The translations under genes were made by a program, and so were the position numbers. Shown here in pieces: positions 4,441 to 62,210 of a stretch of DNA of 64,000 bases. Within the stretch, counting starts at the first letter, position 1; each line of letters begins with the position of its first letter. The DNA is from Candidatus Bathyarchaeota archaeon (GTDB lineage: Archaea > Thermoproteota > Bathyarchaeia > 40CM-2-53-6): contig CAVPLU010000016.1 in assembly GCA_963706285.1 (NCBI GenBank), positions 1 through 64,000 on the forward strand. Reading direction: 5' to 3'. The notes beneath the pieces are model-generated. The model worked only from the letters and a program-made list of their open reading frames with translations. It was not told the origin of the DNA and did no database searches.

Positions 4441-4530
4441 ACGCCTCCCATGAGAGTTCATATCTGGATTCCCGCACCAAGAGATTCCCACACAATGCCA
4501 ATAACGACGACAAACGACGGCTCAAGCCAT
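4441..4530 (+). repeat. Dispersed tRNA-3'-end-like repeat, copy H
   Basis: acgcctcccatg..GTTCATAT-ctggattcccgc-A-CCA-agagattcccacacaa (core 4456-4479), followed by a degenerate cgacgac/ggctcaag unit. Confidence 0.7.
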
Positions 4531-4711
4531 GCTCGCAATACGAGATGCCCCGCTTCCTCTTGAGGTCAAGGTGAAAGCGTGGATCATCGCCTCCCATGAA
4601 TATGTGTGGCTAGTTTGGTGCGCATGCACCCGTGGGGGGGGGAGAGCCGCCGGCCGTCTTGAATATCGAGCAATAGGCACCTATTGCATGACATCACTGA
4701 CGTGATCAGGG

Positions 4712-5280
4712 TTAGCCGTAGCCCAATTCCTGGAGCAGGCTCACGGTGAGAGAGATGTTCGCGTCACCGAGCGTTTTAATCTTCTGGAAACCATTCCGCT
4801 TGGGATTATGCTGTAGAGTGGTTCTGCTTGGCCTAGGAATACAGTGTCCACAAGCTCCTTCCGTCAAGAGCTGCTGCAATGGCCTGTTCACTTTCGGATT
4901 GTCGAAGGGCGGAATCTTCTCTTGGAAGCATAGGAACATTATGTAAGCCCCTGCGCCCTCCCAGACTCTCACGTTGGATCGGTTTGAGGAAGTTCTTGAT
5001 GTCAGGTGCCGTCAATTGGGTTGCGTCGAATTCCGTCCCGTCATAGAACTTCGACCTTGCCTCAAATCCAAAGTCCATACAAGACCGTACGGGCTTGCTG
5101 ACCACCCTGTCGCCAATCCCGGTACAAAGTCACTGATTGCCCAGATTAGGTTTGATATAGACCAAGGCGGCTCCGGTATTCATGATGACGTGCGTTCCAA
5201 AAGTCCGCTTCAGCCACATCTATGTTAGTAGCCACCGAGTCTGTCGTTCCAATGACCAGCGTGTCTCTGGGGCTTTCGAT
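4712..5280 (-). pseudogene. Degraded ABC peptide substrate-binding protein (family 5) remnant
   Basis: Fragments in shifting frames: DTLVIGTTDSV, PGLATGWSASPYGLVWTLDLRQG, KFYDGTEFDA, PPFDNPKV; about 570 bp versus about 1.5 kb expected. Confidence 0.75.
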
Positions 5281-5397
5281 CAGCCAATAGCACAAATATC
5301 CTGCCATGTCGAGTGTGACTCCTCGACTTGGGCAGTGATCAAGGTACTGCCAGGATTGGCCATGGGTGCCCTGATAGGACTGTTCATAGGTTGATTT

Positions 5398-6042
5398 CTA
5401 GTTACAGATCCCAGCTACTCGGGCTTGATGATCGTTCGCATCTGGATTCTGTATCTCTTTGTGAAGAACGGTGAATAGGTGCCTGAGCACTGCCAGAGAC
5501 TTGTCTCTTTCCATCTTGTCAGGAATATCGTTCACACTATAGTCCATCAATGCCCGCAGGTTCACCAAGTCTGCCAAGTCCTCAGTGATGCCGCCAAGCA
5601 TGAAACTGGAGAAATTGGTGATCGCGACAGAGGTCAGCGTCAGAAAGGCTGCGAACGTTGCAGCGCTGGTGGATAGGCCTGCAATGAATGCGGAAAGCAC
5701 GACAACCAGTCCGGTAACTGATCCATCAGCTAATCCAGCTACAACTTCGATCACAGGGTCCTTCTTCAAGAGGAGCCTTCGCCATTCCTCGCCGAGTCTG
5801 ACGCCTCGATCAGTCAGCTGAACCGCTCCCTCTTGAAACAGAACGAGTCCCTCGGAAACCATCTCTTTCAACGCTCGATCGAGGTCATTCATTTCGACGT
5901 GGACGTGAGGGCCTGCACAGATCTTGTCTATCCGTCGCTTAAGTGACAGGAACTCGTGCCGATCGCCCTTGCGTAGGCTAAGAAGAACAATCACTCTTAT
6001 GATGTCAGCTAGTTCTTGGATTTCAAACGACAATTGAATCAA
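5398..6042 (-). CDS. Winged-helix domain fused to a VIT1/CCC1-like membrane segment, probably C-terminally truncated
   Basis: wHTH-like ALKEMVSEGLV..VQLTDRG followed by VVAGLADGSVTGLVVV and hydrophobic helices. Confidence 0.55.
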   Translation of the reverse strand: MIQLSFEIQELADIIRVIVLLSLRKGDRHEFLSLKRRIDKICAGPHVHVEMNDLDRALKEMVSEGLVLFQEGAVQLTDRGVRLGEEWRRLLLKKDPVIEVVAGLADGSVTGLVVVLSAFIAGLSTSAATFAAFLTLTSVAITNFSSFMLGGITEDLADLVNLRALMDYSVNDIPDKMERDKSLAVLRHLFTVLHKEIQNPDANDHQARVAGICN

Positions 6043-6137
6043 TTCACCGTCTACAGTCTGAAGCGAAACGCGCCAATTCTGTCATCTTGAGACCTTGCGG
6101 CATTACTTGACAGCTTCCCCTTTATCTTGACGGACGA

Positions 6138-6226
6138 TGGCGCGGGCATCTAGATTTGAACCGTCGTCGTTCGTGGTTTTTGGACTTAGATGTGTGCCGT
6201 GCTTGGTGCGAGCATCGGATTCTCGC
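6138..6226 (-). repeat. Dispersed tRNA-3'-end-like repeat, copy G (two units)
   Basis: Minus strand acgacgacGGTTCAAAT-ctagatgcccgc-G-CCA (6170-6138); second degenerate unit gaatccgatgctcgcACCA followed by cacaca. Confidence 0.75.
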
Positions 6227-6363
6227 TATTGAGGTTTTGGAAATGCGTAGTTTGGCAGAGAGTGAGCACGCGGACACGTGTCTCAATATGGGCACTTGGA
6301 TTCATAACAAGAAAAATCGGATTTAAGAAAAAAGAGGGGTGCGTATTGATGGAGATTGGTTGT

Positions 6364-7723
6364 TTATTTGACGTATGTTGGTACGGTGATTTTTGCTGGT
6401 TCGTATTCGCTGAGTTTCTTGCCCAGGAACATTTCGTATGCTGATAGGTCTAGGAGTCCGTGGCCGCTGCAGTTGAACGCTATCACTTTCGCCTCGCCGC
6501 TCCTCTTGCAGGCGAGCGCTTCGTCTATTGCGCATTTTATGGCGTGTGATGTTTCGGGTGCTGGGATGAGTCCTTCTGTGCGTGCTAGGAGTAGTGCGGC
6601 GTCGAATATTTCGTTCTGTCCGTAGGCGACTGGATTTCATGTATTTCTTGTTGATGAGGTAGGAGATGAGTGGCGCCATTCCGTGGTATCGTAGGCCGCC
6701 TGCGTGGATCGGTGGGCAAGCGTACATGTGTCCGAGCGTCAGCATCTTCGCGAGTGGTGTCATTCCGGCTGTGTCTCCGAAGTCGTACGTATAGACGCCT
6801 CGTGTGGTGTGTGGTACTGCTTTTGACTCGCATGCAATGAATTCGGTGTTCTTCTTTCCTTGCAGTTTGTCCATCATGAATGGGAAGGAGAAGCCTGCAT
6901 AGTTTGATCCGCCGCCGATGCAGCCAATGACTACGTCGGGATAGGTGTCCAGTTTCTCGAATTGTTTCTTTGCCTCCAATCCAACGATGGTTTGGTGCAT
7001 CAGCACGTGGTTGAGTACTGATCCGAGGCAGTAGCGTGTATCTTCGCGGGCGAGCGTGTCCTCAAGAGCTTCGCTGATTGCAATTCCTAATGTGCCTGGA
7101 TGGTTCTTGTTCTTCTTGAGTAGGCTTCGGCCGAATTTTGTCTTGTTGCTTGGGGATGGGAATACTTCTGATCCCCATGTTTCCATCATGATTCGGCGGC
7201 CCGGTTTCTGATTGTAGCTGACGCGAACCATGTATGCTCGGCATTTGAGGTCGAAGAAAGCGGACGCCATCGCAAGGGCGGATCCCCATTGGCCAGCGCC
7301 TGTTTCAGTGACGATTCGCTCTACTCCCTGCTTCTTGCAGTAGTATGCTTGAGCGATCGCCGTGTTCGGCTTGTGGCTACCGGCAGGGTTCGTGTATTCG
7401 CATTTGAAGAAGATCTTCGCAGGCGTCTTCAGATACGCTTCGAGTCGTCTTGCTCGGAATAGTGGTGTGGGTCGGGGTAAGCGCAGGTAGGCGTCGAGGA
7501 CTTCGTCGGGTATCGTGATGTAGCGTTCTTTCGAGTCTTCCTGTCGGACGAGTTCTTCTGCCCATATTCGAGGAGTTAGACCTGGGCTCAGCGCCTCTTT
7601 CGTGCCGGGGTGCAGTAGTGGTGGCAAAGGCTCGGGAAGGTCGGCTTGGATGTTGTACCACGAGGTCGGTATTTCATCTTGGTTCAGGAACGTTGCACAG
7701 TGGTTTCTAATACTGTTCGACAT
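6364..7723 (-). CDS. trpB2: TrpB-like PLP enzyme (TrpB2), frameshift near 6630
   Basis: PAGSHKPNTA, TETGAGQWGSA, GCIGGGSN, IHAGGLRYHG; alternative frame ends SGHGLLDL..YVK-stop at 6364. Confidence 0.93.
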
Positions 7724-9225: not shown

Positions 9226-9363
9226 GCACGCCTGAGCCCTTACGTGCTCAACGGTAATCGGGGCGAAGTCATATGAGCCGAAATGATTGCTGATTATTTG
9301 CCATTATTCGACAAGCGAAAGGCCTATGAGTGAAGCCCCGCGTCTTGCGCGAAAGTGCGTCAC

Positions 9364-10450
9364 ATGCAGACCGCAACCGTTGCCAAACCGAAGCTCTTCG
9401 GCTCGCTCATATCCGAAGTGTTGAATCGTAATCTTTGTACATCCTGCGGCGGCTGCGTCGCATCCTGCCCAGTATACATTCTTCAGATGCAAGGCGAGAA
9501 TCCCACGATGAAGGGGAAATGCGAACTCTGCCAAGTCTGCTACTACTCATGCGCGGGCGCAGCATTCCCAATAGACGAAGTTGAGAAAGCAATCTTTGGA
9601 AGACCTAGAGACGCTGACGAGCCGATCGGCATCTACAACACAATAGCGAACGCTCGTTCCATGAAAGAAGAGATTCTGCAAAAGAGCCAAGATGGCGGAG
9701 TCGTCACCTCGGTTCTTGGATATGCGCTTGAAAGCGGCAAGGTCGATGCCGCCGTGGTCACATCCCTCGACAAACAGATGTCGTGGAAAGCGATTCCGAG
9801 CGTCGCGCTGGATTACTCCGATGTTCTGAACGCCGCGGGGACGAAGTACACTCCCTCTCCAACATTGATCGGCCTCATGTCAGCCGCACAGGAATAGATG
9901 GAAAGAAGAAGGTCGCAATAGTATAGGCACTCCGTGCCAGATCCGAACATACAGGAGAATGCAGACATCACATCTCGGCGCGAAGAAACTTGCGAGCACA
10001 GTCTCACTTGCGATCGGATTATTCTGCATGGAAAGCTATCACTACGACAAACTACTCGGAGATTACCTCCAAACCAAGAATGTTGAGTTGAGCAAGGTCA
10101 GTCGGTTCGAGATGAAGAGCGGAGAATTCCGAGTCTACACTGGAAAACAAGAGACACTGAATGTTCCGATCAAGGAGCTGGATGTGCTTAGACGAGCAAA
10201 CTGCAAAGCCTGCGAAGATTTCTCAGCCGAATTCGCCGACATATCCCTAGGAGGCGTGGGATGCTCGGAGGGTTGGTGTACTGTGATCGCTCGCACAACC
10301 CGCGGACAGGAATTCCTAATCAACGCTGAAAAGAATGGTTGGATAGAGCTGAAACCCATCGACTCTGAGAAATGCGGAATGGAGCAGATACTCAGACTCT
10401 CAGCTAGCAAGAAGACGAGCATGCAGAAGAACGAGTCTGTGCATACCTAG
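9364..10450 (+). CDS. Coenzyme F420 hydrogenase/dehydrogenase beta-subunit family protein (FrhB-like), interrupted near 9897-9930
   Basis: CTSCGGCVASCP ferredoxin, SQDGGVVT, AAGTKY, GTPCQ in the junction, IGLFCME, CKACEDFSAEFADIS. Confidence 0.85.
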
Positions 10451-10555
10451 CCGCCCACACCATTAGCTCCGACGACGAAAAACGAACGCCTCTCCTATGA
10501 CGGTTCAAATTCCGATGCCGCACCTAGGCAACTACACACAACAGGGTCAGATTCC
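10451..10555 (+). repeat. Dispersed tRNA-3'-end-like repeat, copy A
   Basis: cgcccacacca..cgacgacgaaaaacgaacgcctctcctatgacGGTTCAAATtccgatgccgcacct..cacacaa immediately after the FrhB-like stop. Confidence 0.7.
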
Positions 10556-13145: not shown

Positions 13146-13416
13146 GAGCTCACCTTTCCCGCCACCGAACCTTGAATCAGGAGCAGCTGCAGTATGGTTA
13201 CACTGGACCTTTCTTATGTCATCTTCGTTTGCGGGCACGCCGCATGTATCCGGTTTTGTGTGTGTACGCACCAAGCTAGAATCACACACAACGCGTCTTT
13301 CCAGAGGTTAAATTCCAAAGAATCTTTCAGATCGCCCTAACAGTGCGTCATAAAGACAGGTGACGAAAAACATAAGCGAGACAGTCCTTCTTTCAGAACA
13401 CCTCGGGGGCGATACT

Positions 13417-14224
13417 ATGCTACAGATTGGCAAGACCATTAGAATGGACAGAATAATGAACAGACAGACCAAGAGAACTGTAATCATCCCGCTGGATCAC
13501 GGAGTCACCTTGGGGCCGGTGCGCGGACTCCGCAAGATGAATGAGACTGTCGACGCTGTCTCGAGAGGCGGGGCAAATGCAGTTGTGGAGCACAAGGGAA
13601 TCATTCAGGCAGGATATCGAGGATATGGAAAGGACATCGGTCTCATTATGCATATGTCTGCGAGCACCAATCTGGGCCCCGACCCAGGCAACAAGATCGC
13701 CGTTGCTGATGTTGACGAAGCGATAAAGCTCGGAGCAGACGCCGTTTCTGTTCACATAAACATAGGATCCAAGACTGAACCCGATCAGTTGGCATTCCTC
13801 GGACGCACCGCTAAGATCTGTGGAGAATGGTCCATCCCCCTTCTCGCGATGATGTACCCCAGAGGAGAGAAGATCAAGAACGAATTTGACGTGGAAGTCG
13901 TTGCGCATGCTGCTACGAGTTGGCGCTGAACTGGGGGCGGATGTGATCAAGACCAACTACACAGGAAGCATTGAATCGTTTAGAGAGGTTGTGCTAGGAT
14001 GCCCGGTGCCTGTCGTTATGGCGGGCGGACCAAAAACGGAGACACATGAGGAGTTCTTCCGAATGGTCCATGATTCGGTGAAAGCCGGCGGATGCGGTGT
14101 CTCGGCTGGAAGAAATGTGTTTCAAGCCGATGATCCAACAAAAATGGTCCAAGTGCTCTGTGGCATAGTTCATGAGCAACTGAGCGCGGAAGCCGCTGTA
14201 GAGAAATACATGAAACGAACCTAG
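13417..14224 (+). CDS. DhnA-type class I aldolase, probably ADH synthase (AroA'), frameshift near 13910
   Basis: [55 protein letters not shown]. Confidence 0.85.
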
Positions 14225-14372: not shown

Positions 14373-15468
14373 ATGAGAGAGAAGGGCGAACTTGTCGAGA
14401 GCATGTACGTGCGCGTAGACTATCTAGCCCTGACTGATTTCGTTGTGCAGGTTTTGCAGAAATTCGGCGTGCCTGACGAGGATGCGACAATTACGGGTCA
14501 GAACTTGGTCAAAGCAGACCTCAGAGGCATAGAGTCTCATGGAGTTGCAAGACTGAAGCGTTACACTGATGGCCTGAATAACGATGTGGTAAGAACACAT
14601 CCAAACATAAGGACGATTCGCGAATCCCCGGTCACGGCTTTGGTGGACGGCGACTTTGGATTGGGTCAAGTCGTGTCTTACAGGGCGATGAGTCTTGCAA
14701 TCGAAAAGGCAAGGAAGAGTCATGTCGGTTTGGTCGGTGTTCGCAACAGTAACCACTTCGGAATCGCCGGATTCTACGGCCTCATGGCAGCTCGAGCACG
14801 ACCTAATCGGACTTGTCATGACGAATACCCGGCCGTTGGTGACCCCTACCTTCTCAAGAGGGAAGATGATAGGCACTAACCCGTTGTGTGTCGCGGTGCC
14901 GACGGGTGGGAAAGGATTCGTACTCGATATGGCTACTAGTGTGGCGCCGATCGGAAAGATGGAGGTAGCCAAGAGGCTCGGCAAGAAAGTTCCTATGGGT
15001 TGGGGCATTGATCCGGAGGGGAACTTGACAGATGACCCGAGCAGCATATCGAAGGGTGCGCTACTTCCTCTGGGGGGACTAGGTGAGGTTCTCGGAGGCC
15101 ACAAGGGTTACGGTTTGGCGGCCGTCGTAGACATTTTCTGTGGCATCCTTACAGGAGCACACTTCGGCTCGACGGTCGGAGAGACGCAAGGTCCTGATCC
15201 GGCCAATGTGGGCCACTTCTTTGGAGCAATCAATCCGGAGTCTTTCATGCCGTTGTCCGAATTCAAGCATCGGATGGACCAGTTGATCGGATCACTCAAG
15301 TCGGGCGAGAAGCTGCCTGGAGTCGAAGAGATATACATCGCAGGCGAGAAGTCGGCATACACAGAAGAAATCAGAAAGAAGATAGGCGTGGCACTGGATC
15401 TCGAGACGATTAAGATGCTTAGACAATTGAGCGCCGAGACGGAGGTGCCCTTTACATTAACCAAGTAA
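14373..15468 (+). CDS. Ldh_2 family oxidoreductase (malate/L-sulfolactate dehydrogenase-like), frameshift near 14790
   Basis: ADLRGIESHG, RNSNHFG, GTNPL, DMATS, GHKGYGL. Confidence 0.88.
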
Positions 15469-15479: not shown

Positions 15480-15600
15480 AGTCGTTGTGTGTGGGTGGAT
15501 CTCTTGGAGCGAGCGTTGTAATTTGAACAACTGGTTTTGTGTGTGGGTAGGCTGGTGCGGGCGCCCGAATTTGAACACTCGTCGTCGTTCAACGTTTTCC
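15480..15600 (-). repeat. Dispersed tRNA-3'-end-like repeat, copy D (two tandem units, 48-nt period)
   Basis: Minus strand GTTCAAAT-tcgggcgcccgc-A-CCA (15576-15553) and GTTCAAAT-tacaacgctcgc-T-CCA (15528-15505), each followed by a cccacacacaa tail. Confidence 0.8.
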
Positions 15601-15711
15601 TTGTGTGCGGATCTCTTGTTGCGAATCCAAGAAAAGAAGATCTGGCTGGCAATGGATCTTCTTACCCCACCGTAGGAACATGGGCCAGCTCTGACTTTTG
15701 GTGATTGACCT

Positions 15712-16450
15712 TTGACTAGAGGAAAGCGCGGCTACAAACGCGGATATCCTATAGCTGTTCTGGTTGGGTTTGAGGAGAGAAGGGCGGTTCTGTGGCGCGT
15801 CTTCAGCGAATTAGTGAAACGGGATAGCATAGTGGAACGTGAAGATGGAAAGACGCTGTACGATTTCTATGAGTCAATTGTGAACGCGTTGCGGCCAATG
15901 TTCAAAGAAGGAGTCAGAAGCACACTAGTCGCGGCCCCTGCGAGGACAGACTACGCAAAGGATTTCCTCACGCATATCCGAAGGCATCATGCGTGGCTTG
16001 TTCGAGATGGCCCCAATGCTGCAACCTTCGGAGAATTGGTGGGCTCCGCGGGCCAACCTCACGAAGTCCATGAGCTCGTGAGAACTAAAGAGTTCCACGA
16101 TGTGATTGGTGAGACGAGATCTCGAGATGCTGATGGTATTGCCGCAGTCTTGGAGAGGAGTCTCAACCTGAGATAGCGGCGAGGCAGTGTCGTACGCACT
16201 TGAGGAAATAGAGAGCCTAGTTTATGGTCGGCAAGGACAAAGTGACCTCAGGCCAGATCAAATTGTTCTAACTGACAGATACCTTGCGGAAACCAAGAAC
16301 AAAGGTAGAATCCAGAGACTTCTACAGATCTCAAAGAACAAAGGCATCAAGACTACAATCGTCAACGCTAAGACTGGACCGGGGCTTCGTCTCAGTCAGC
16401 TTGGAGGGTTAGTCTGCTTCTCCAACTCAAACGAGAAGAAGCGAAAATGA
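15712..16450 (+). CDS. Pelota/eRF1 domain 2+3-like protein lacking the N-terminal domain (frameshift near 16170)
   Basis: FYESIVNAL..LVAAP..KDFL middle domain; SYALEEI..IVLTD..GLRLSQLGGLVCF resembles eRF1 domain 3. Confidence 0.65.
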
Positions 16451-16551
16451 ACGAGAAGCACGTGGAATGGAGATCATCCCAATCATCGTGCCATTCTCTT
16501 TACGTGTGCGGATCTAGGACGTTACCTCTATTCTGGCAGGGATTTCTGTAT

Positions 16552-17250: not shown

Positions 17251-17288
17251 TCACAACCCTCCCTATGTTTCATCTGCGCGTCTCAGTT

Positions 17289-47188: not shown

Positions 47189-47261
47189 GGGTTCCGGCCT
47201 TCAAGTAGGTGTCAAGATGGATCAGCGGATGTCCGGATTATTAGCTGGTCTGGTCAGCTTT

Positions 47262-47522: not shown

Positions 47523-47667
47523 GCTAATCTCACTGTGACGCATGGGTGATGCGCCACTTATTTCAACGTTCCATGCGATCTTGGGAACCAGTCGAGCAAG
47601 GGTTATCAGAGCGGAGGAATGAGATTGCCGGGGATACGAAACTGTATCTCCTAGAGAGGTCCCTAAA

Positions 47668-48433: not shown

Positions 48434-48520
48434 AAGGGTCAAAGACTGTGGAATTGACAAAGTCGCAGTATTCAAGACATAAAAGCCTAAGAGGGGAATT
48501 GTCAGGCGGCATGGATTACC

Positions 48521-49617: not shown

Positions 49618-49689
49618 GCGACACTCTCACGAGTCTGTGTGAACGACGTGTAGATAAAGGGATTATGTGTGACATGACTGTTACTCCTT

Positions 49690-50180
49690 GGTCAGTTCCA
49701 ATGGAAAAATGAAGTATTCCAGCGGAAACGGAGGGGTGTGTCCTAGTTCACTTAATGTGAACCTATTTCTTGCCTGAAAACTTCCACAAAGCCCAGACCT
49801 GGTTGAGATATGATTATGATTACACATGATGACAGTTGAATGTGAAGTGTCCCTAACCCCTGCCTTTCCAGTGGAGTTCGTTTTGACATTTCACGGTCTG
49901 AAAAAGAGTCTTAGTGTTACTACTACAATAATTAGCATAACCTTCCTTATCCTAAAACTCTCGCTAATATACACAGGATTTTTTTCTCAACACTACACTT
50001 CACTTCTTTAGGAATACGTTTCTCCAGGGGAAGTGCACGGGTGCCGGGGAGGTAATGCTCAACTCCATACAAATCAATATGATTCAGGTTTCACGATTTT
50101 TTTGTTGCAACTAGTCTTACTTCTTCGACAATGATGATTATTATGAGTTCAAGTAGAAAGACGGGGATTACCAGTGGAGA
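49690..50180. other. Replication origin oriC with inverted ORB elements
   Basis: TTCCAGCGGAAACGGAGGGGT (49717-49737, +) and CTCCACTGGAAAGGCAGGGGT (49876-49856, -); mini-ORBs near 49696, 50022 and 50170; AT-rich tracts; directly upstream of cdc6. Confidence 0.88.
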
Positions 50181-50186
50181 TGCCTA

Positions 50187-51452
50187 ATGGAGAAGCCTAG
50201 TATGAAATCAGCAGACGTTCTTGAAGGCATCTTTGAGAACTTCCTCACTGGACCACAACTGTTCATTAATCGAGAAGTTCTGAGAAACGACTACATCCCC
50301 AGCACGCTACCTCACCGTGCAGAACACATTCAGAGACTAGGCGGTATACTCGCGCCGGCCCTGAGTGGTTCCAAGATATCCAACCTTTTCGTGTATGGGA
50401 AGACTGGAACCGGGAAAACCATAGTAGCAAAATTCGTGTTAGAGAGACTGAAGAAGAAGGCCGAGGATGTCGGCACACCTGTTCGAATCTCATACGTCAA
50501 CTGTCGCATGGCAGGAAGCAACTATCGAGTGCTCGCTGATCTCTGTCGCTGCGTCGGAGTTGAGATTCCCTTCACAGGCCTGGCATTAGGTGAAGTTCTG
50601 GATAGATTCAGGACCGGCCTAAACGCCGACAAAACCCCTCTCATAGTTGTCTTAGATGAAATAGACGCCCTCGTCAAGGGTCGTCAAGACGACTCCCTGC
50701 TCTATGAATTGACCAGAATCAATGAAGAGCTTGGCCAAAGCTGGATTGGAATAGTCGGCGTCTCCAACGATCTCCACTTCAAAGAGTTCCTCGACCCTCG
50801 AGTGCTGAGTTCTCTAAGCGAAGAAGAGGTCGTCTTCAGGCCCTATCTCGCAAACGAACTCTACGACATTCTCCTCGACAGAGCCAAACTAGCGTTTGCT
50901 GATGGAATCCTATCGGAACCCCCCCTCCGACTCTGTGCAGGGCTCGCAGCCGGCGAACACGGCGACGCCAGAAGAGCACTCGACCTATTACGAGTGGCAG
51001 GAGAGCTTGCGGAACGCGAAGGCGCACGCACGATCCAGGAGGACCATGTCAAACGTGCGCAACACAAGATTGAACACGACAGAGTCGCCGAAGTGCTGAA
51101 GTCACTTCCTGTACATTCAAAGGTCGTGTTGGTCTGCGCGTATCTGGCCACTAATCAGGCGCCAGAAGGCGTGATCACAGGCGACATCTACGAGGTCTAT
51201 CATGAGCTGTGCTCAGCGGCAGGGTTGGATCCACTTACGCAACGGCGTGTGAGCGGCCTAGTGAACGAGCTTGATGTAATGGGAATTCTCAACGCAAGGG
51301 TCGTAAGCTTCGGCCGGTACGGTAGAACTAAGAAGATAAGACTCGGCGTCTCACCTAGAGTCATCGTTGAAACCTACTCGGAAGACACCCTCGTCGGACG
51401 ATTATTCAGCCACGTACCCAGATCTCTCCAGAAGCGCCCAGGAATCGCTTAG
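50187..51452 (+). CDS. cdc6: Orc1/Cdc6 replication initiator
   Basis: GKTGTGKT, VLDEID, GDARRALDLLR, C-terminal wH with GRYGRT. Confidence 0.96.
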   Translation: MEKPSMKSADVLEGIFENFLTGPQLFINREVLRNDYIPSTLPHRAEHIQRLGGILAPALSGSKISNLFVYGKTGTGKTIVAKFVLERLKKKAEDVGTPVRISYVNCRMAGSNYRVLADLCRCVGVEIPFTGLALGEVLDRFRTGLNADKTPLIVVLDEIDALVKGRQDDSLLYELTRINEELGQSWIGIVGVSNDLHFKEFLDPRVLSSLSEEEVVFRPYLANELYDILLDRAKLAFADGILSEPPLRLCAGLAAGEHGDARRALDLLRVAGELAEREGARTIQEDHVKRAQHKIEHDRVAEVLKSLPVHSKVVLVCAYLATNQAPEGVITGDIYEVYHELCSAAGLDPLTQRRVSGLVNELDVMGILNARVVSFGRYGRTKKIRLGVSPRVIVETYSEDTLVGRLFSHVPRSLQKRPGIA

Positions 51453-52023
51453 AGCTGTCGGCATAGACGACGGCCCATCAAAACGCAGTGGAACAACGAA
51501 GTCATCTACGTCTCACGCCTCGTTGGTCGCAGTCTGGTTTGACCAACTAAGATTCGACCAAATACGCATCGGAGTTCTGGAAGTTGATGGACTGGATTCA
51601 ACCAACGTAATCCTCAAGCTACTCAGGGGAACACGAACAGACATAATCTTTCTTTCAGGAATCACCTTCGCAGGATTCAACATCGTCGATTCTACCCGAC
51701 TTCACAATACGCTTCACATTCCGATTATCGTTGTCTGCCGAGAGAAGCCTGATAATCGCTCCGTCAAACGTGCGCTTCAGAAGCATTTCACAGACTGGGA
51801 GAAACGATGGGAGCTGGTGCGCAAGTTTGGGAGGATATACTCATTCGCGCCGAAACCGTCAGAGCAGCCTCTACATTTTGAAGCTGTTGGCATCTCAGCA
51901 GCCCATGCGAAGAAGGTCATCAGTGCCTACTGTGCCACGTCGAGGATTCCCGAACCTATCCGGGTTGCCGGCATCGTCGCAAAAGGACTAGCTCTAACCG
52001 GCGCGGAGCTAAACGCTCGATAG
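51367..52023 (+). CDS. DUF99 family (endonuclease V-like) protein; true start probably near 51440
   Basis: VGIDDG, VDGLDST, GITFAGFNIVD, IPEPIRVA. Confidence 0.85.
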   Translation: MKPTRKTPSSDDYSATYPDLSRSAQESLRAVGIDDGPSKRSGTTKSSTSHASLVAVWFDQLRFDQIRIGVLEVDGLDSTNVILKLLRGTRTDIIFLSGITFAGFNIVDSTRLHNTLHIPIIVVCREKPDNRSVKRALQKHFTDWEKRWELVRKFGRIYSFAPKPSEQPLHFEAVGISAAHAKKVISAYCATSRIPEPIRVAGIVAKGLALTGAELNAR

Positions 52024-53538
52024 ACATGAAGTCGGTGACGCTAAGCTTCAGCGTCTGAAGGTTCACTACCGGGAGCAGACCAGGCGTAGGCTTTAGGCCC
52101 ATTCGCTGCTGATATTCCGTCTGATGCTTGCCACGCACCCGAGTTCACAATGAGCGTCCCTCGATACTGCTCGTGACCAAAGACGTGAATATGTCCTGAA
52201 TGAAATACGTCGGGCGGATTCTCAATTATCAAATGATCCTCTGGCATTGGCGCGATAGATGTTCGGTTGCCGTACTCAGGAGCCAAATGTCTGCATCGAA
52301 GCTGAAGCTCCATCGCCCTCTCGGGTTTGTCGAAACTCATTCCAGGAGCGCTTGTCAACATGTCCTCAAGGCTTCGGCCGTGATGTACGAGGAAACGTAC
52401 TCCATGAAGCTCCACTTCGCATGGGTTCCCTAGCGACGTAACGTGTCGTGCCTCATAGACGGGTTCACCATACTCTCTCGAGATCGCGGGTTGGGGGAGC
52501 GCCTGTCTTACGCCGTCGTGATTGCCTGGACTGATAATGACTTCCATGTGTTCTGGTATCTGTTGGATGAATCGAGCAGCATACTTGTACTGCTCGTAGA
52601 TGTCTGGAATGGTTAGCTCGTCCTCTTGGCGAGGATAGACTCCTATTCCATCTACGAGATCTCCAGCGATGATGACGTACTTGGTTCGTTGAGCAACGTA
52701 GACTTGTTGAGGGTTTCCCACTTCGCCGTTAAGCCAACGAATTGCACGTTTGAAAGCGTCTTCCAGGAACTTGTTGCTACCAACATGAATGTCAGATAGG
52801 AGAACCGCGTAGACTTCTTCCTTTGCGCCTCGGGGCCTTCTCTCCGGGATATCTGGAAGCGTGACTCTCTGGGCGACGAGGAGACTCCGGCTGCTCTTCA
52901 CGGCTTCGATGCAGACAACTTGGTCGAGCGGAGCCGTTAGAGCCATCTCGTAGAGTTGACGGTCGCGGTCTGTTGGGACCAGAACCTGTGCCGTGTCTTC
53001 GAAATCGTCCACGCTTAGGAAGAGCTTGTTTCCTCGCTCACGCTTATCCATTATCATCCCAATGAACTTCACATGTGCGCTCTGCTGTGCGTTGAGAGCA
53101 TCGGATATCGTGCCTGCATCTCTGGCGTCGCTTCTTCGTTGAAGGATCTCACGCATCTTCACGAATCGGTCTCGGAAGTGCCGGTTGAAGTCGTCCATTG
53201 ATCCACCGAAGGTCGACATGCTGGAAGGGTCTTTCAACACCTTCAATTCGCTCTGGATCTGAGCCGCAACTGGGGCTCCGGCTCTGACGGGTTCGGAGAT
53301 TCGAATCGTCTCAGCCAGCGGGAGCATGTGATTGAGGACTAGTTCAACAACGGGGCGGTCAATCAGGTGTTGCTTAGGATGCTGCTTCTTTGCCGCCGCG
53401 ATCAATTCTTCAGCCAGTCTTATCTTGGTCGAGGCTGCCGGCCGAAGCCTGAATGAGGTCGAAGGCGTCCGTGCCAAATTGCCATCCTGCAGAGAGCACG
53501 CGCTCAACCACATGCCTGAAGCCTTCGTGGACCTGCAA
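51956..53538 (-). CDS. polB: DNA polymerase D small subunit DP1 (frameshifts near both ends)
   Basis: OB fold plus SDIHVGS, GDLVDG, PGNHD, HGRS, HLAP, GHIH. Confidence 0.93.
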
Positions 53539-56048: not shown

Positions 56049-56188
56049 GCCCGGGTTGCCGAGCCAGGTACGGCGACAGAGCCTATGCGTTTCGGTGCGC
56101 TGGGCGTTGAACCTCGAGATCGCAATAAATCGGACCAAGTAAGCTGTTGGTCCTCTGGGCCGCGTGGGTTCAAATCCCACCCCGGGCG
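56049..56188 (+). tRNA. tRNA-Ser(CGA) with two introns (30/31: 56080-56111; 37/38: 56119-56141)
   Basis: Acceptor GCCCGGG/CCCGGGC plus G73, long variable arm, GTGGG-TTCAAAT-CCCAC T arm; after splicing the anticodon arm is ACAGC-CTCGAGA-GCTGT. Confidence 0.88.
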
Positions 56189-56257
56189 CCTAATCAAGCC
56201 CAGTGCAGACGATCACAAAATCTCCAATCGCGACTAGAGTAGCTTGGGTCGCTGATG

Positions 56258-57440: not shown

Positions 57441-57482
57441 ACGTTCAAATTCGACTCTACGCACCATGAGATCCACACAAGA
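57441..57482 (+). repeat. Dispersed tRNA-3'-end-like repeat, copy F
   Basis: GTTCAAAT-tcgactctacgc-A-CCA-tgagatccacacaa, starting 10 nt after the serB-like stop. Confidence 0.75.
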
Positions 57483-57515: not shown

Positions 57516-57944
57516 CTATTTCTTTCGCTTCTTCTTAGGGGCGGGAGTTCTCTTTTTCGTTATGTGGTAGATGTCGAGCCAGATTCCGTCGATGACTTTG
57601 AAGAATGCGACTTTCCATTCGCCATCTTCAATTGGTCCAATCATGGGAGGATATCCAGCATCTTTTAGTCGTTGCACGGCTCCGTCGAAATCATCAACCT
57701 CGAATCCTAAGTGATCCAGCTCGTCACCTTCTTTGAAGGGGCCTGCGACTGGGCTGTCATCTGCGTACCAGTTGATCTCTAGCCAATGCTTCTCGTCGAG
57801 TGACAAGAGGTTTGCGAACTCCCCTTTGTTCGAAGGAGCCTTGATACGACCTTGCACCTTCATTCCGAGGACATTCGTGAAGAATTGAATTGCGTTATCG
57901 AGATCTCGGACACGTATCCCCGTGTAACCGAACTTGAATCTCAT
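57516..57944 (-). CDS. VOC/glyoxalase family protein
   Basis: YTGIRVRDLD, LEINWY, LDHLGF; paralog of 28106-28522. Confidence 0.85.
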   Translation of the reverse strand: MRFKFGYTGIRVRDLDNAIQFFTNVLGMKVQGRIKAPSNKGEFANLLSLDEKHWLEINWYADDSPVAGPFKEGDELDHLGFEVDDFDGAVQRLKDAGYPPMIGPIEDGEWKVAFFKVIDGIWLDIYHITKKRTPAPKKKRKK

Positions 57945-58002
57945 GATAGGCAAGAGTGCTCGTTTCGGTATTAAGACTGTACCAAGGACCGATGCCATAC
58001 CA

Positions 58003-58140
58003 GTGTGTGTGGTAGTAATGGTGCGAGCGCCCAAATTTTGGCCGTCGTCGTTTGAGGTTTTTGTGTGTGGATCTATTGGTGCGGGCGCCGTAATTTGAAC
58101 CGTCGATTGGCGTCGTAGTTTGACTGTGTGTGCGCACCAA
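58003..58140 (-). repeat. Dispersed tRNA-3'-end-like repeat, copy E (two tandem units)
   Basis: Minus strand GGTTCAAAT-tacggcgcccgc-A-CCA (58101-58077) and GGCCAAAAT-ttgggcgctcgc-A-CCA (58043-58019), each with a cacacac tail. Confidence 0.8.
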
Positions 58141-58411
58141 GATGCCTGTATACACACAAGAATCAATGGTTTGAACCGTGACGGACGACGGGTTAGGGAA
58201 AGAATCCTCCTACTGATTCCTCATTTGATGACTGACTCAAAGGGGTCGATCATAATCACTATGAAGAGTCCGATGAAGCTTGTGTGATTCCGGCAAGACG
58301 AAGAAACCAAGAACCACATGGAGTGCATGAGAGAGCCCGACGAAACGCGCAATGACAGAAGTTAATCGAAATAATTGTGGAAGTCATTAGCGATTCCAGA
58401 AAATGTATTTG

Positions 58412-58451
58412 AAAAATGGGGGTAACTGGGAGCGTATGTCTCCCAGGTTAC
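58412..58451 (-). terminator. Hairpin plus T-tract terminator candidate
   Basis: gtaac-tgggag/ctccca-g-gttac stem followed on the minus strand by TTTTT, just after the 58460 stop. Confidence 0.55.
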
Positions 58452-58459
58452 TTACGATT

Positions 58460-58984
58460 TTATGCCTTAACGTTAGGCTCGTACGCGAATAGTGTCTCGC
58501 TTCTCCAGATCCCATCAGTATGACCTATTTGTTCGACCGTAGATTTCATGAGGTCCTCATAGTTCCTTGCCTTGGAACTCATGATGATGTCGAACTGACC
58601 TGGAATACTCCACGCGTCGTATATGGCGGGTAGCTTCTTCAGCTTCTGTATAACTTCCGGTAATGGCTTATTCACTGATAGGAGACTGAATCCCCAAACG
58701 CCCTCCGCGTCAAGTTTCTGACCGTTAACGAATCCATCATTTGCAGTGAAAGTATTGGTGCTGTTTACTCCGTGGATACTACGTATCTTGTTAACTATAC
58801 TGTAGACTTGCTCTGGAGTACTGTTCTTGATTCGCATAATGATATCGTATCGACCGGTCACTGGTGCGCTGAACTCTATATCGCTGTACTTGCGTAGCTC
58901 CTCAACCACATGTGGCAACCGGTCATGCTGGACCTTTGCGAACACGTAAGTCGGGAACATTTTGTTTGCTTGCATTATTTTCAC
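58460..58984 (-). CDS. Tandem Lrp/AsnC ligand-binding domain protein (no HTH)
   Basis: VTGRYDII..TNTF and IPGQFDII..SETL repeats. Confidence 0.8.
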   Translation of the reverse strand: MKIMQANKMFPTYVFAKVQHDRLPHVVEELRKYSDIEFSAPVTGRYDIIMRIKNSTPEQVYSIVNKIRSIHGVNSTNTFTANDGFVNGQKLDAEGVWGFSLLSVNKPLPEVIQKLKKLPAIYDAWSIPGQFDIIMSSKARNYEDLMKSTVEQIGHTDGIWRSETLFAYEPNVKA

Positions 58985-59081
58985 CTACTAACTCCAAGTA
59001 TTGTTAAGCCTAAGTATAGCTGTATCATGCATATAACAGTTGTTACCAGAAGATATATCTGTAACATTCACCAATTCAGGC

Positions 59082-59774
59082 ATGAATGAACCCATGAAAA
59101 CGGTAAGAAGGCGAACGATATCCGGAGTCGTAGTGGATCTGTTAACGCGAAACCACCCCGTTTACCAGCACATTCGGATGGGACTCATCAACTATCACGC
59201 CTTAGCCGCAAGAATCAAGCCTACCGTGGACCGGATTACTGGCAGGGACGTGAACGTTAACACGATAGTTGTAATTATCAAGAGGTTTTCGGATGCACAA
59301 TCCAAACTTGGGCTACCACTCACCATGTCCATACTTAGAAATTCAAAAATGAGTTTGAGTAGTGGAGTGGTTGACGTGACAATTACTCCTAAGAGAGAAG
59401 CTTTCATTGGCGAATTGAGGAGGCTCGTGGAACTATCTACTGAAATGGACGAACGCCCACATATCTTCCCCCTCGTCAACTCAATCAAGATCATTGCCGA
59501 CGTAAACGACTATGGAAAACTGAAAACGGCACTGAAAGGCCGATACTCCCTAAAGCCTCGAATGAATACGGTGAAAATTATGATACATCTATCCGAGGAT
59601 GCTGAGAGGCCTCCTGGAATCGCCGCGTACATTACTGACCTGCTCTACCGCAACGGAATAAACATCATAGACGCATTCCTAGGATACGAAGACATCATCC
59701 TCATACTCGATGAGTCAGATGGATCACGAGCATACACAATATTGGAAGAGGAGACCAGCGAAGCTCGCAAGTGA
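59082..59774 (+). CDS. ACT-domain regulator-like protein
   Basis: GLINYHALAARI N-terminus; PGIAAYITDLLYRNGINI ACT domain. Confidence 0.75.
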   Translation: MNEPMKTVRRRTISGVVVDLLTRNHPVYQHIRMGLINYHALAARIKPTVDRITGRDVNVNTIVVIIKRFSDAQSKLGLPLTMSILRNSKMSLSSGVVDVTITPKREAFIGELRRLVELSTEMDERPHIFPLVNSIKIIADVNDYGKLKTALKGRYSLKPRMNTVKIMIHLSEDAERPPGIAAYITDLLYRNGINIIDAFLGYEDIILILDESDGSRAYTILEEETSEARK

Positions 59775-59832
59775 GCCTGCCAATGCACTATTCGAGGGAT
59801 GCGGCTACAACTCTTTAACGCGTGGGTCAGCT

Positions 59833-59945
59833 GGTGCGCGACGACGAAAAACGTCCCTCCCATGCGAGGTTCAATTCTGGGTGCTCCACACTAGTGACCA
59901 CGACGACGGGTCAGATCCAGTAGTTTTGTGCGTGCGCACCAAGAG
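59833..59945 (+). repeat. Dispersed repeat, copy C (degenerate)
   Basis: cgacgacgaaaaacg identical to copy A, then ccctcccatg..GGTTCAATT, cgacgacgggtcagatcc and cgcacca. Confidence 0.65.
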
Positions 59946-60068
59946 GCTCTCATGAGTGAGGAGCGAGACAGAGCACGAATCCTATCTCCAAATGCTTTGC
60001 GGCAGCCATAGACGGATACGTTCCAGTACGCAACCAGCTTGTGTTTGCAGCGCTTGCAGTTGAATGAG

Positions 60069-61242: not shown

Positions 61243-61257
61243 CCGAGGCCGTGTAAC

Positions 61258-61428
61258 ATGAGCAAAGAAGAAGTAAAGGGAAAAAGTAAGCAAATCAAGG
61301 GACAGATTCGTGAAGAAGTAGGCAAATTGACGAAGAACAAAACGGAACAGCTCAAAGGCAAGATTGAGCAAGTCGAAGGAAAAGCACAAGAGGAAATAGG
61401 GAAGTTCAAAAGAAAGGCCAAAGAGTAA
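61258..61428 (+). CDS. csbD: CsbD-family general stress protein (not in the ORF track)
   Basis: MSKEEVKGKSKQIKGQIREEVGKLTKNKTEQLKGKIEQVEGKAQEEIG. Confidence 0.85.
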   Translation: MSKEEVKGKSKQIKGQIREEVGKLTKNKTEQLKGKIEQVEGKAQEEIGKFKRKAKE

Positions 61429-61601
61429 GCCGACGTTCTGGCACGTACGCGCGCACTAATTTTCTCCGTAGTTTTGCGTTTACAGAGCTTTTTCAACTGT
61501 TTGGATACTCATGCTCTGCTCAGCTGAAAGAAGAATTGTGTAGCGTAGTCTCACCAAGGCTTATCTACAAATTTCGAATAATTAGCATCCGGGTAATCAT
61601 A

Positions 61602-61802
61602 ATGGCTGTGAAGATACTGGAACTGATAGGAAGCTCCGATAAGAGTTGGGAGGATGCAGTGCAAGAGGCCTTGAGAGAAGCCGCGAAAACTGTGAGGGAA
61701 ATCGTTGGCGTAGATGTGTTGGGATTCAAAGCAGATGTGAAGAATGGCAAGATTAGCCGATATAAGGCCCACGTCAAGATAGCCTTCACCGTTGAACGAT
61801 AA
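61602..61802 (+). CDS. Dodecin family flavin-binding protein
   Basis: KILELIGSSDKSWEDAV..YKAHVKIAF. Confidence 0.9.
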   Translation: MAVKILELIGSSDKSWEDAVQEALREAAKTVREIVGVDVLGFKADVKNGKISRYKAHVKIAFTVER

Positions 61803-61831
61803 TTCAATCCGGTAACATTGGAGGATCACGG

Positions 61832-62047
61832 ATGTTATCGGAACTCAAGACTTGTGGCATTTGTAACAGGGAGAACCTGCCAGAGAGCAGTTTTTGTGAC
61901 CTATGCGGATCGCCTTTCGAAGTTCTGGTGGAATGCAGTTGCGGATGCTGTCATCCTGAAGCAGTATTCTCTGATCCAAGCGACTATCCTGAAGCAGTAT
62001 TCTTGATAGACTATCCTGAAGCAGTATTCGCGACAATTATTGGTTAA
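61832..62047 (+). CDS. Zinc-ribbon microprotein with a triplicated PEAVF tail
   Basis: CGIC..FCDLCG; ATCCTGAAGCAGTATTC three times at 61953, 61986 and 62013. Confidence 0.5.
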   Translation: MLSELKTCGICNRENLPESSFCDLCGSPFEVLVECSCGCCHPEAVFSDPSDYPEAVFLIDYPEAVFATIIG

Positions 62048-62140
62048 CACTTAACGCTAATCGCATTCGAAGATTACTCTATCCTTACATCAGAACTAGC
62101 TGACAAGATACGGAAGACTAGAGCCTCAAAGAGGGAACGA

Positions 62141-62210
62141 AACGCAGCACCAAGTGACCCGACAACGACGATAAACGAACGCCTATCCTGTGGCAGTTCA
62201 ATTCGCTGCA
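62141..62210 (+). repeat. Dispersed repeat, copy B (degenerate)
   Basis: gcacca..acgacgataaacgaacgcctatcctgtggcaGTTCAATT, alignable to copy A. Confidence 0.6.

Follow-up and report, generated by a model that had tools for sequence, protein, structure and literature searches.

Repeat units and element junctions in the window

The window, that is, the whole 64,000-nucleotide stretch of Bathyarchaeia DNA analyzed here, carries a repeat family that is real: the eight loci listed in the initial annotation all exist, with heptamers starting at 4457+, 6160-, 10504+, 15527-/15575-, 57444+, 58041-/58099-, 59870+, and 62197+. A full unit consists of a leader, T-TCAAAT-Y, which matches the tRNA T-loop; exactly 8 nt; and a 14-nt target block starting CGCA-CCA, equivalent to tRNA positions 70-76 plus 7 nt. 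The block directly abuts the tip of an inserted element, and the tips found after it are of the types CACACACAA, CGACGACGAAAA, and CACCACCAC, with CGCCCCCGCCGCC also present in a relative. The features of the window are as follows:

4440..4497, plus strand: landing pad and element end, with a remnant of an A-type end (..ACGCCTCCCATGAGAG), leader TTCATAT (4457-4463), 9 nt, block CGCACCAAGAGATT (4473-4486), and a CACACA-type tail
4560..4622, minus strand: block CGCACCAAACTAGC (4609-4622), then a D-type element's left end (CACACATATTCATGGGAGGCGATGA..), which recurs at two other genome sites (approximate starts C14:93414 and C9:19305)
6131..6210, minus strand: block (6197-6210), D-type end (CACACATCTAAG..ACGACGACGG), leader TTCAAAT (6154-6160), and block CGCGCCATCGTCCG (6131-6144), which has no tail and thus looks like an unoccupied pad
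10456..10546, plus strand: block CACACCATTAGCTC (10456-10469), starting 6 nt past the FrhB-C stop codon, A-type end (CGACGACGAAAAACGAACGCCTCTCCTATGACGG), leader TTCAAAT (10504-10510), a spacer of 8 nt, block CGCACCTAGGCAAC (10519-10532), and a D-type tail
13255..13293, plus strand: junction of two element ends, ..TTTTGTGTGTGTA, block CGCACCAAGCTAGA (13267-13280), and ATCACACACAACG
15482..15623, minus strand: array of three target blocks (15610-15623, 15546-15559, 15498-15511), each followed by a CACACA tail, with two full units (leaders 15569-15575 and 15521-15527)
57444..57482, plus strand: full unit 10 nt past a HAD hydrolase gene, with leader (57444-57450), block CGCACCATGAGATC (57460-57473), and tail CACACAAGAG
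57516..57998, minus strand: glyoxalase-family cargo gene, bracketed by the inverted full units 58041- and 57444+
58003..58106, minus strand: two tandem units, the first with leader TTCAAAT (58093-58099), block (58070-58083), and D-type end, the second with degenerate leader CCAAAAT (58035-58041), block (58012-58025), and a tail that extends into the glyoxalase start codon
58124..58160, plus strand: end-block-end junction, CTGTGTGTG, block CGCACCAAGATGCC (58133-58146), and TGTATACACACAAG
58143..59838: cassette with genes for an AsnC-type regulator (58460-58984, minus) and for a 244-aa product (59040-59774, plus)
59825..59948, plus strand: inverted block (59825-59838), A-type end (59839-59869), leader TTCAATT (59870-59876), and degenerate block (59886-59899), followed by a second degenerate leader (GTCAGAT) and block CGCACCAAGAGGCT (59935-59948)
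62146..62203, plus strand: block AGCACCAAGTGACC (62146-62159), A-type end (CGACAACGACGATAAACGAACGCCTATCCTGTGGCAG), and leader TTCAATT (62197-62203)
4609-4622-, 6197-6210-, 10456-10469+, 13267-13280+, 15610-15623-, 58133-58146+, 59825-59838-, and 62146-62159+: eight further junctions, missed by the initial annotation, of 14-nt block and tail without TTCAAAT

Copy number and fixed spacing

With up to one mismatch, the pattern GTTCAAAT-N13-CCA matched the window eight times, against a mean of 1.11 and a maximum of 6 in 100 shuffles; one of the eight (56168) is the genuine 3' end of an intron-containing tRNA-Pro gene (56049-56190). The tail motif CACACACAA occurred 10 times in the window against 1.6 expected. 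Genome-wide, approximately 47 units were detected, 45 of 47 intergenic, and the family was found in all nine congeners searched. Of 19 sites in the genome with CGCACCA no more than 40 nt after TTCAAAT, 17 have a gap of exactly 9 nt, which bears out the fixed spacing first noticed in the window. The information profile of 59 units reads G-TTCAAAT-T..G.YGCYCGCACCA, followed by weakly conserved positions.

Likeness to tRNA 3' ends and to published casposase targets

The initial annotation described an unpaired T-stem and a missing 5' half, and indeed ARAGORN calls no tRNA at the units. Its remark that the units end like tRNA genes in CGCACCA is correct, as the genome's real tRNA genes end in CCGCACCA; ARAGORN labels these genes Ala(CGC), Trp(CCA), and Gly(GCC) rather than Leu, although such labels are unreliable for intron-rich tRNA genes. 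Among 59 genomes of the family, 12 contain the pattern CCGGCGGCCGCACCA-N5-9-CACACA, and reversed-pattern controls gave none. At the tRNA-type 3' ends fetched from relatives, the tail begins exactly 7 nt past CCA in 10 of 10 loci; ARAGORN finds a tRNA gene at four of these, and a paired T-arm can be recognized by eye at eight.

The Aciduliprofundum boonei casposase is reported to recognize TCAAATC “8 bp upstream of the TSD” together with the opening 2 nt of a duplication of 14-15 bp at a tRNA-Pro 3' end; in Methanosarcina mazei the reported duplication measures 14 bp, has a conserved 5'-CGCA, and covers the final 4 bp of tRNA-Leu. Within the duplicated block, the first bases alone are reported to matter. 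Judged by sequence, the geometry of the units is that of the published target of family 2 casposons, and the fixed spacing with a free interior emphasized earlier fits a T-loop motif placed 8 bp upstream of a 14-bp duplicated block.

Cas1 genes, element ends, and target duplications

In a relative from the same family (L058), a TTCAAAT-N9-block precedes an element whose inverted tips match perfectly over 17 nt and lie 10,932 bp from one another, and an identical 14-mer occurs three times, against none expected. This element encodes an HNH nuclease and a 404-aa Cas1 whose best solved relative is 6OPM (262 bits; other Cas1 entries reach at most 83 bits), an entry that the M. mazei casposase structure paper cites. 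Such similarity suggests a casposase-like protein, and the Cas1 of genome G009 is likewise nearest to 6OPM (218 bits). L058 has a second G-type end, at 16121, and this is matched by the end at 7079 as an inverted repeat of greater length (55 nt, 80%); the 11-kb element may therefore be composite.

In the genome under study, C-terminal remnants of Cas1 lie at C9:513-925, C10:48972-49333, C14:89521-89602, and C10:248706-248836, the first two at 1.5-3 kb from triple-unit arrays. At the last listed unit of the window, the pad is replaced from 62204 onward by the end of a repeat of about 500 nt that elsewhere in the genome adjoins Cas1 fragments. Because only fragments, and no intact Cas1, were found in this 89%-complete assembly, the casposon system looks mostly fossil here. 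No family B polymerase was found in or near the Cas1 elements examined, and therefore one defining casposon feature is missing.

Duplicated blocks flanking inverted ends were also found at other sites. In this genome, C3:30962 and C3:32597 carry an identical 14-mer 1635 bp apart, the only exact pair, and C10:139806 and C10:140790 form a direct repeat of 15 nt (93%) that immediately encloses inverted ends of 19 nt (89%). Among relatives, L050 has a one-mismatch block pair with CACACA-type inverted ends of about 20 nt, and L043 an exact pair 1278 bp apart. In the permutation control for such pairs, 10 of the 17 pairs come from a tandem repeat on C19 that is unrelated, and the control is inflated accordingly. 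Many elements are bounded by inverted rather than direct blocks (for example 4473+/4622- in the window and 3189/4431 in L043), which may be explained by inversions between inverted ends.

Flanking genes and synteny

The genes next to the units have accessory redox and stress functions. In all four loci of relatives with both flanks mappable, synteny is lost at the unit, and strain comparisons place the break inside units in two cases. One metagenome contig lacks the 58143..59838 cassette and joins 58142 to 59839 with 4 other letters between them (depth 2.96). The 57444..57482 unit is kept in a contig of a relative (L014), where the HAD hydrolase gene is 97% identical, and in a congener (G001) the same glyoxalase-family gene follows another unit and lies on the downstream side of a tRNA-Gly gene. 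On these alignments, the units mark flexible DNA.

The impression gained from the window that units lie on the same strand as, and downstream of, the preceding gene did not extend to the genome. Based on our own rough gene calls for 47 units, strands relative to the two flanking genes were opposite/opposite in 15, same/same in 15, opposite/same in 9, and same/opposite in 8, with no strand bias.

Preferred and alternative explanations

We consider that the units are probably junctions at the DNA level, left behind by casposon-like transposons that a Cas1-family integrase mobilized. The initial annotation had offered scars of repeated tRNA-targeted integration as one possibility, and this comes close to the evidence, the agent apparently being a Cas1 transposase (casposase) with matching target geometry.

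Since tRNA 3' ends are the classic target of tyrosine-integrase islands, the units could instead be attL/attR scars, with the block as att core and the tails as element arms. Inserts flanked by direct block repeats and integrase genes in 5 of 10 genomes of the genus agree with such a reading, which is nevertheless improbable: PF00589 has no match in this genome, four unit-bearing congeners also lack an integrase, and only 1 of 10 integrase loci has a unit at E < 1e-3. Furthermore, the repeated core is 14 nt and directly abutted by inverted element tips, the L058 element between identical blocks encodes Cas1 and no integrase, and the geometry equals the published casposase target.

If the units were a promoter or operator module repeated across a stress regulon, with TTCAAAT as TATA box and transcription starting in the CACACA tract, this would account for a heptamer one base off TTTAAAT, CACACA about 24-31 nt downstream of it, several units immediately ahead of start codons (58041 at the glyoxalase gene, C9:19272, C16:99950), and the adjoining redox and stress genes; halovirus intergenic repeats are also reported to carry promoters. 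Half of the units, however, face the 3' end of a convergent gene or no gene, the genome's own tRNA genes use GAAA..CTTTAAGT-type promoters whose A-rich BRE is missing from the units, and the 14-nt duplications, inverted tips, and occupied tRNA-type 3' ends in relatives are left unexplained. We regard this module as even less likely, and outward promoters at element ends could still exist.

Least credible is a repeat belonging to the host, either REP/BIME-like or SINE-like and tRNA-derived, or else a small structured RNA or a signal for 3'-end processing that mimics the tRNA acceptor arm: intergenic confinement, a mosaic modular make-up, and the likeness to tRNA 3' ends are countered by the lack of a consensus RNAalifold structure on either strand, a mean folding z-score of -0.08 (59 units), no Rfam match at the units even with E up to 10, no orientation bias, and no Y1 (RAYT-type) transposase in the genome. 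The unit as an RNA was rejected on the fold, Rfam, and strand results, and the SINE/REP-like and 3'-UTR ideas proposed earlier are unsupported, with no strand or positional bias to genes, no fold, and synteny breaking at units.

Comparison with known systems

Family 2 casposons (AciBoo-C1 of A. boonei; M. mazei at tRNA-Leu) share with the units a tRNA gene 3' end as target, the T-loop leader motif TCAAAT-C/T 8 bp before the duplicated block, a 14-bp duplication starting 5'-CGCA at tRNA position 70 and abutted by inverted ends, leader-proximal reinsertion that yields tandem arrays with one shared block between insertions, and HNH nuclease cargo; the Cas1 of the L058 element is also closest to the solved M. 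mazei casposase. In contrast, the Cas1 elements examined here show no family B DNA polymerase, the tips fall into several unrelated types, the majority of “elements” are one- or two-gene cassettes without Cas1, and dozens of leader-plus-block pads occur away from tRNA genes, often in tandem units of 46-67 nt. The host clade, Bathyarchaeia, also differs, and our literature search found no paper treating casposons in it.

CRISPR arrays similarly combine a Cas1-family enzyme, a leader motif upstream of a duplicated block, leader-proximal insertion, and short-repeat arrays (period here 46-67 nt), but here the duplicated block measures 14 nt and the “inserts”, unlike the diverse spacers of CRISPR, are conserved element ends; the leader is repeated in each unit, and no cas2 or effector genes are linked. 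Tyrosine-integrase islands at tRNA genes also repeat a partial tRNA 3' end at their borders and stack beside tRNA genes, whereas here integrase genes are absent or unlinked and a core of just 14 nt is bordered by inverted tips. Integron cassette arrays and CALINs, archaeal ones included, resemble the present loci in their rows of single accessory genes with a short recombination site between them and an order shuffled between strains. Archaeal integrons are described as structured like bacterial ones, with attC folding and same-orientation cassettes (Ghaly et al. 2022), while the units here lack an attC-like hairpin and IntI and are of mixed orientation. Enterobacterial REP/BIME elements are likewise intergenic, mosaic, and dispersed; the units differ in being non-palindromic, lacking RAYT, and being tied to target duplications and a Cas1 element.

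Proposed mechanism and implications

The units are most likely casposon target-plus-end junctions of a polymerase-less variant with dispersed landing pads. From the published A. boonei and M. mazei casposase biochemistry, we infer that the integrase would recognize the leader motif plus the opening bases of the block, and would join both element ends 14 bp apart, so that the block is duplicated. The leader-proximal copy would remain a valid target where further elements pile up, and later inversions or deletions between inverted ends would leave short scars and single-gene cassettes.

At least 28 leader copies lie away from tRNA genes; they are not explained by standard casposition, in which the 14-nt block alone is duplicated. 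In a proposal we hold about evenly balanced, suggested by one complete element (C10:139820-140789) and by the repeated sequence arrangement, a separate copy of the landing pad would lie 16-37 nt inside the tip in A-type ends and in many of the D-type ends. Such copies would spread pads away from tRNA genes, and a pad hit in turn would leave tandem units of 46-67 nt. Casposons inserting at the ends of tRNA genes most likely stacked accessory genes into variable islands.

Repeat units as probable casposon junctions

The repeat units, each made of a leader with the T-loop-like heptamer TTCAAAT, 9 nt, a 14-nt target block beginning CGCACCA and a tail that forms the tip of an inserted element, are quite likely the combined trace of target and element end left by casposon-like Cas1 transposons, which are a known type of element. 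Their form here is unusual, with no polymerase, several types of tip, dispersed landing pads (leader plus block) and mostly single-gene cassettes.

Copy number and distribution: The eight loci of the initial annotation, described there as a family mimicking a tRNA 3' end, were all located in the window. A search for GTTCAAAT-N13-CCA with at most one mismatch gave eight matches in the window against 1.11 expected, one of which is a genuine tRNA-Pro gene, and the tail motif was also enriched, with 10 matches against 1.6 expected.

56049-56190, + strand: tRNA-Pro(TGG) gene with a 64-nt intron, called by ARAGORN in intron mode only

Across the whole assembly (2.13 Mb in 21 contigs, 89% complete, 7.5% contamination, with archaeal 16S and 23S rRNA genes present), an iterated nhmmer profile recovered 47 units at E ≤0.01, of which 45 are intergenic according to our own rough gene calls; these calls cover 78% of the assembly and underlie both the intergenic and the orientation counts. 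The units are clustered, at 23-65 kb of contig C3, 3-37 kb of C9, 50-52 and 139-140 kb of C10, 68-70 kb of C6, and 4-15 and 57-62 kb of C16, which holds the window. Because the weaker profile matches are also mostly intergenic (all 24 at E 0.001-0.1, 11 of the 12 at 0.1-1 and 24 of the 29 at 1-10), the true family size is probably nearer 100 copies. The family also occurs in all nine other genomes of the genus that were searched and in some related genera.

Anatomy: Aligned on the heptamer, 59 units give the profile G-TTCAAAT-T..G.YGCYCGCACCA, followed by seven weakly conserved bases and then the tail. The block, counted as 14 bases from CGCACCA onward, reads as CGCA-CCA plus 7 nt because the tRNA genes here encode CCA. 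Four settings of the block were found in the assembly.

Settings of the 14-nt block
Setting 1: 9 nt downstream of TTCAAAT; 28 or more genomic sites
Setting 2: flanked by an inverted tail on one side and a forward one on the other, as in TTGTGTGTG-block-CACACACAA; 14 sites
Setting 3: in either orientation
Setting 4: ahead of a tail, which is CACACACAA, CGACGACGAAAA or CACCACCAC

The CGACGACGAAAA tail runs on as ..ACG.CC.CTCCTATGA.GG into a new TTCAAAT-N9-block, which is the long form seen in the initial annotation. A separate conserved motif of about 40 nt, AAAGCGGCACCTCTTTCCCGGARGGCGGCACCTCTTTG, which contains two direct copies of GGCACCTCTTT, is found at C14:93464-93504 and in 13 or more further places, in some cases 60-70 nt inward from an element end of the CACACA type; it might act as an operator or promoter for cassette genes.

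Genomic setting: The window carries core genes, including those for both PolD subunits, Orc1/Cdc6, HerA and NurA, together with many small redox and stress genes. Orc1/Cdc6 lies between the two PolD genes, and a nearby 570-nt gap, which is free of units, may hold a replication origin. Several window genes look split or truncated: the N- and C-terminal parts of FrhB are separate ORFs, an aldo/keto reductase is read as two overlapping ORFs, and matches to DeoC and Ldh_2 are partial. These genes may reflect assembly frameshifts or real pseudogenes.

43784-53513: stretch containing PolD large subunit (43784-47188), Orc1/Cdc6 (50187-51452) and PolD small subunit (52041-53513)
49617-50187: 570-nt gap, candidate replication origin
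9355-10450, 23164-23980, 13360-14224 and 14695-15468: split or truncated-looking genes

Agreement with published casposase targets

The Aciduliprofundum boonei casposase is described as needing TCAAATC 8 bp upstream of a duplicated segment of 14-15 bp at a tRNA-Pro 3' end, together with the two bases that open this segment; at the element end about five terminal bases suffice, and the enzyme integrates short single-stranded oligonucleotides (PMC6614799). Work on Methanosarcina mazei gives a 14-bp duplication with a conserved 5'-CGCA start overlapping the last 4 bp of tRNA-Leu, and reuse of one site that leads to tandem elements with a shared duplication between them (PMC4779613; PMC6977970). 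The geometry of our units, T-TCAAAT-Y, 8 nt and a 14-nt block starting with CGCA, is identical to the published target, and the leader motif, the 8-bp spacing and the conserved start of the duplication at a tRNA 3' end are those of a family 2 casposon. From this agreement we infer that the leader and block are recognized by a casposase.

In the wider family, 3' ends of tRNA type are occupied in the same way. The 3' end CCGGCGGCCGCACCA is followed 5-9 nt on by CACACA in 12 of the 59 family genomes, and the reversed pattern occurs in none. Among ten tRNA-type 3'-end loci that were fetched, the tail starts exactly 7 nt past CCA in every one; ARAGORN calls a tRNA in four of these ten, and a paired T-arm is visible in eight. 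The tRNA genes of our own assembly that end in CCGGCGGCCGCACCA are unoccupied.

Junctions and duplications

Strain and species comparisons: Sequence homology repeatedly ends at units. Positions 3750-4398 and 5452-6333 of the window match C15:1-2900 at 95-97% identity, and between these flanks C15 carries a different insert of 1.3 kb, with divergence starting at a unit. C15 is a second haplotype of this stretch, and the bin therefore mixes at least two strains. A stretch from a relative (L014), 96-97% identical where it matches and with a hydrolase gene 97% identical to its window counterpart, joins the homologue of C3:29592-30976 to that of window position 56719, and homology stops inside units. 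In a congener (L006), a single unit connects the C3 tRNA-Gly region with the glyoxalase gene of the window. Both flanks could be mapped in our assembly for four of 11 loci fetched from relatives, and all four break at a unit. In a comparison of filled and empty sites based on short contigs from four DNA runs, with uncovered stretches ignored, the sole informative joint was one metagenome contig (depth about 3) that connects 58142 to 59839 and so lacks the cassette with an AsnC-type regulator.

Duplications and inverted ends: Target site duplications of 14-15 bp are present, as are terminal inverted repeats in L058 (a stretch from a genome of the same family), in C10 and in L050 (a stretch from another relative).

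C3:30962 and 32597: identical 14-mer, 1635 bp apart
C10 pair: 15-nt direct repeat (93%, one mismatch), spacing 984 bp
C10:139820/140789: inverted ends of 19 nt, 89% identical, just within the direct repeat
L050: insert of 1 kb whose inverted ends measure about 20 nt (by eye), with a one-mismatch duplication
L043 (stretch from a relative) 3189/4467: exact 14-mer pair, 1278 bp apart

At many other junctions the block is inverted or unmatched, and many inserts are flanked by an inverted block. A permutation test for matching 14-mers was contaminated by a tandem repeat on C19 and was discarded as a statistic. That repeat, five copies of about 142 nt at C19:29097-29656, is unrelated to the units.

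Cas1 genes and complete elements

The L058 element: L058 comes from a 100% complete genome in three contigs. On its minus strand, TTCAAAT-N9-CGCACCAGCATACC is followed by an element whose inverted tips, 17 nt long and perfectly matched, lie 10,932 bp apart, then by the 14-mer again, an element of the CACACA type, the 14-mer a third time and an unrelated flank; the 14-mer gives three matches against none expected. A second end of the G type lies internally and pairs with the end at 7079 as a longer inverted repeat. In the first element lie genes for a Cas1, for an HNH nuclease and for two proteins that look like defence cargo, a TIR-domain protein and a TPR protein; neither cas2 nor cas4 was seen beside cas1.

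L058:10179-11393: Cas1 of 404 aa, inside the element with inverted ends
L058:11395-12159 and 16212-17675: TIR-domain protein and TPR protein of the same element

The best PDB match of this Cas1 is 6OPM at 262 bits, with other Cas1 entries at 83 bits or less; 6OPM is cited in the M. mazei casposase paper (PMC6977970). The Pfam Cas1 match covers residues 58-296 of 404, with about 100 residues beyond it, and the alignment to 6OPM reaches query residue 395 and residue 405 of 431 in the chain. A Cas1 of a congener (G009), located 3.8 kb inside an end of the CACACA type, has PDB matching like that of the L058 protein. Another congener (G006) has a regular CRISPR adaptation module, so CRISPR Cas1 and casposase-like Cas1 coexist in the genus.

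L044:9092-12188 (G006): csa1, cas1, cas2 and cas4, with a CRISPR Cas1

Judged by sequence, relatives thus encode putative casposases distinct from CRISPR Cas1. No intact casposase was found in our own assembly, which at 89% completeness does not prove absence. C-terminal Cas1 fragments lie at four places in it, two of them 1.5-3 kb from arrays of three units. Three copies of a repeat of about 500 nt adjoin truncated Cas1 fragments, each at the same position, and the end of this repeat takes the place of a landing pad in the window. The repeat holds an ORF of 179 aa, which precedes the Cas1 fragments and was considered as a casposase N-terminus and rejected, having neither similarity nor a family match.

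C9:1-505, C10:48470-48975 and C14 about 89000-89525: copies of the ~500-nt repeat
Window 62204-62290, reverse: end of the ~500-nt repeat

Polymerase: A family B polymerase, as in self-synthesizing casposons, was not found in or near the Cas1 elements examined. PF03175 had no match in our assembly or in three relatives (G066, G009 and G073), all PF00136 matches in G066 lie off the contigs of its two Cas1 loci, and none of the 13 ORFs scanned in the L058 element is a polymerase.

Alternative readings

A promoter would account for at most half of the units, and no consistent ORF lies downstream of them; the tRNA promoters of this genome combine an A-rich BRE with a CTTTAA-type box and differ from CGACGG-TTCAAAT. 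Attachment sites of a tyrosine integrase would require a linked integrase gene, and the repeats show no such linkage: PF00589 has no match in the assembly, and integrases occur in five of ten genomes of the genus, with a unit at just one of ten integrase loci. The Y1 transposase of IS200/IS605 (PF01797) has no match in the assembly either, and its single TnpB is far from any unit. Integron attC sites are rejected on the lack of a fold, the mixed orientation of the units and the same lack of PF00589 matches, and the units do not fit the description of archaeal integrons.

A signal in 3' untranslated regions, offered in the initial annotation, fails, since orientation to genes is random and the units are not tied to gene ends. 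Relative to the two flanking genes, the units are opposite/opposite in 15 cases, same/same in 15, opposite/same in nine and same/opposite in eight; the strand bias to gene 3' ends that had been noted in the window is absent among the 47 units genome-wide. Adjacent units follow no consistent pairing rule, and distant pairs are convergent in eight cases, direct in seven and divergent in three. RNAalifold found no consensus fold for either strand, individual units were no more stably folded than shuffled sequences (mean z -0.08), and Rfam gave no matches at units even at E up to 10. A tRNA or tRNA-like structured RNA is rejected on these grounds together with the lack of a cloverleaf, paired T-arm, acceptor stem or ARAGORN call. 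Split-tRNA 3' halves, considered because tRNA genes here are intron-rich, are dismissed, as the units lack an anticodon or T-stem and number about 47. Nearly all ARAGORN tRNA genes of the assembly have introns and most encode the CCA end; ARAGORN reports three tRNA genes without the intron option and 26 with it.

Proposed spread of landing pads and its implications

Casposon insertion at tRNA ends leaves unexplained both the dozens of leaders that are not next to tRNA genes and the tandem units, because ordinary casposition duplicates only the block. Some element ends may carry a landing pad of their own, located 16-37 nt inward from the tip. In the complete C10 element an A-type end is followed by TTCAAAC-N9 and a block-like sequence, and window positions 10456-10532, 59825-59899 and 62146-62203 have the same arrangement. 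Insertion at a pad inside an older element would leave the first 46-67 nt of that element as one unit, and inversions between inverted ends could yield the inverted blocks and the longer inverted repeat of L058.

The machinery of CRISPR adaptation is considered to descend from casposons, and to our knowledge records of natural casposon insertions are few outside Methanosarcina, Aciduliprofundum and Thaumarchaeota. Our literature search, conducted outside subscription journals, found no paper on casposons in Bathyarchaeia, and within that literature this host clade is previously unreported. A far-reaching possibility, which we regard as speculative and rather unlikely, is that Bathyarchaeia have a polymerase-less, casposase-driven, integron-like system of gene cassettes, in which short ends bring their own tRNA-like pad, insertions make new targets, pads spread, and accessory genes are stacked, shuffled and lost; the tandem arrays of 46-67 nt, each a leader, block and short insert, would then be a living intermediate between casposon and CRISPR.

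The units provide dozens of natural target sites across a whole genus. Their conserved positions coincide with the motifs defined in vitro (the T-loop motif, the 8-bp spacer and the first bases of the 14-bp duplication) and therefore give independent evolutionary support for the target rules of casposases. For annotation, they explain numerous peculiar intergenic repeats of "tRNA-like" appearance and breaks in synteny in metagenome-assembled Bathyarchaeia. If pads travel inside ends and the elements move with no polymerase of their own, Cas1 enzymes would have a new route to islands of accessory genes, and portable pads, if real, would offer a concrete model for the origin of leader-repeat arrays.
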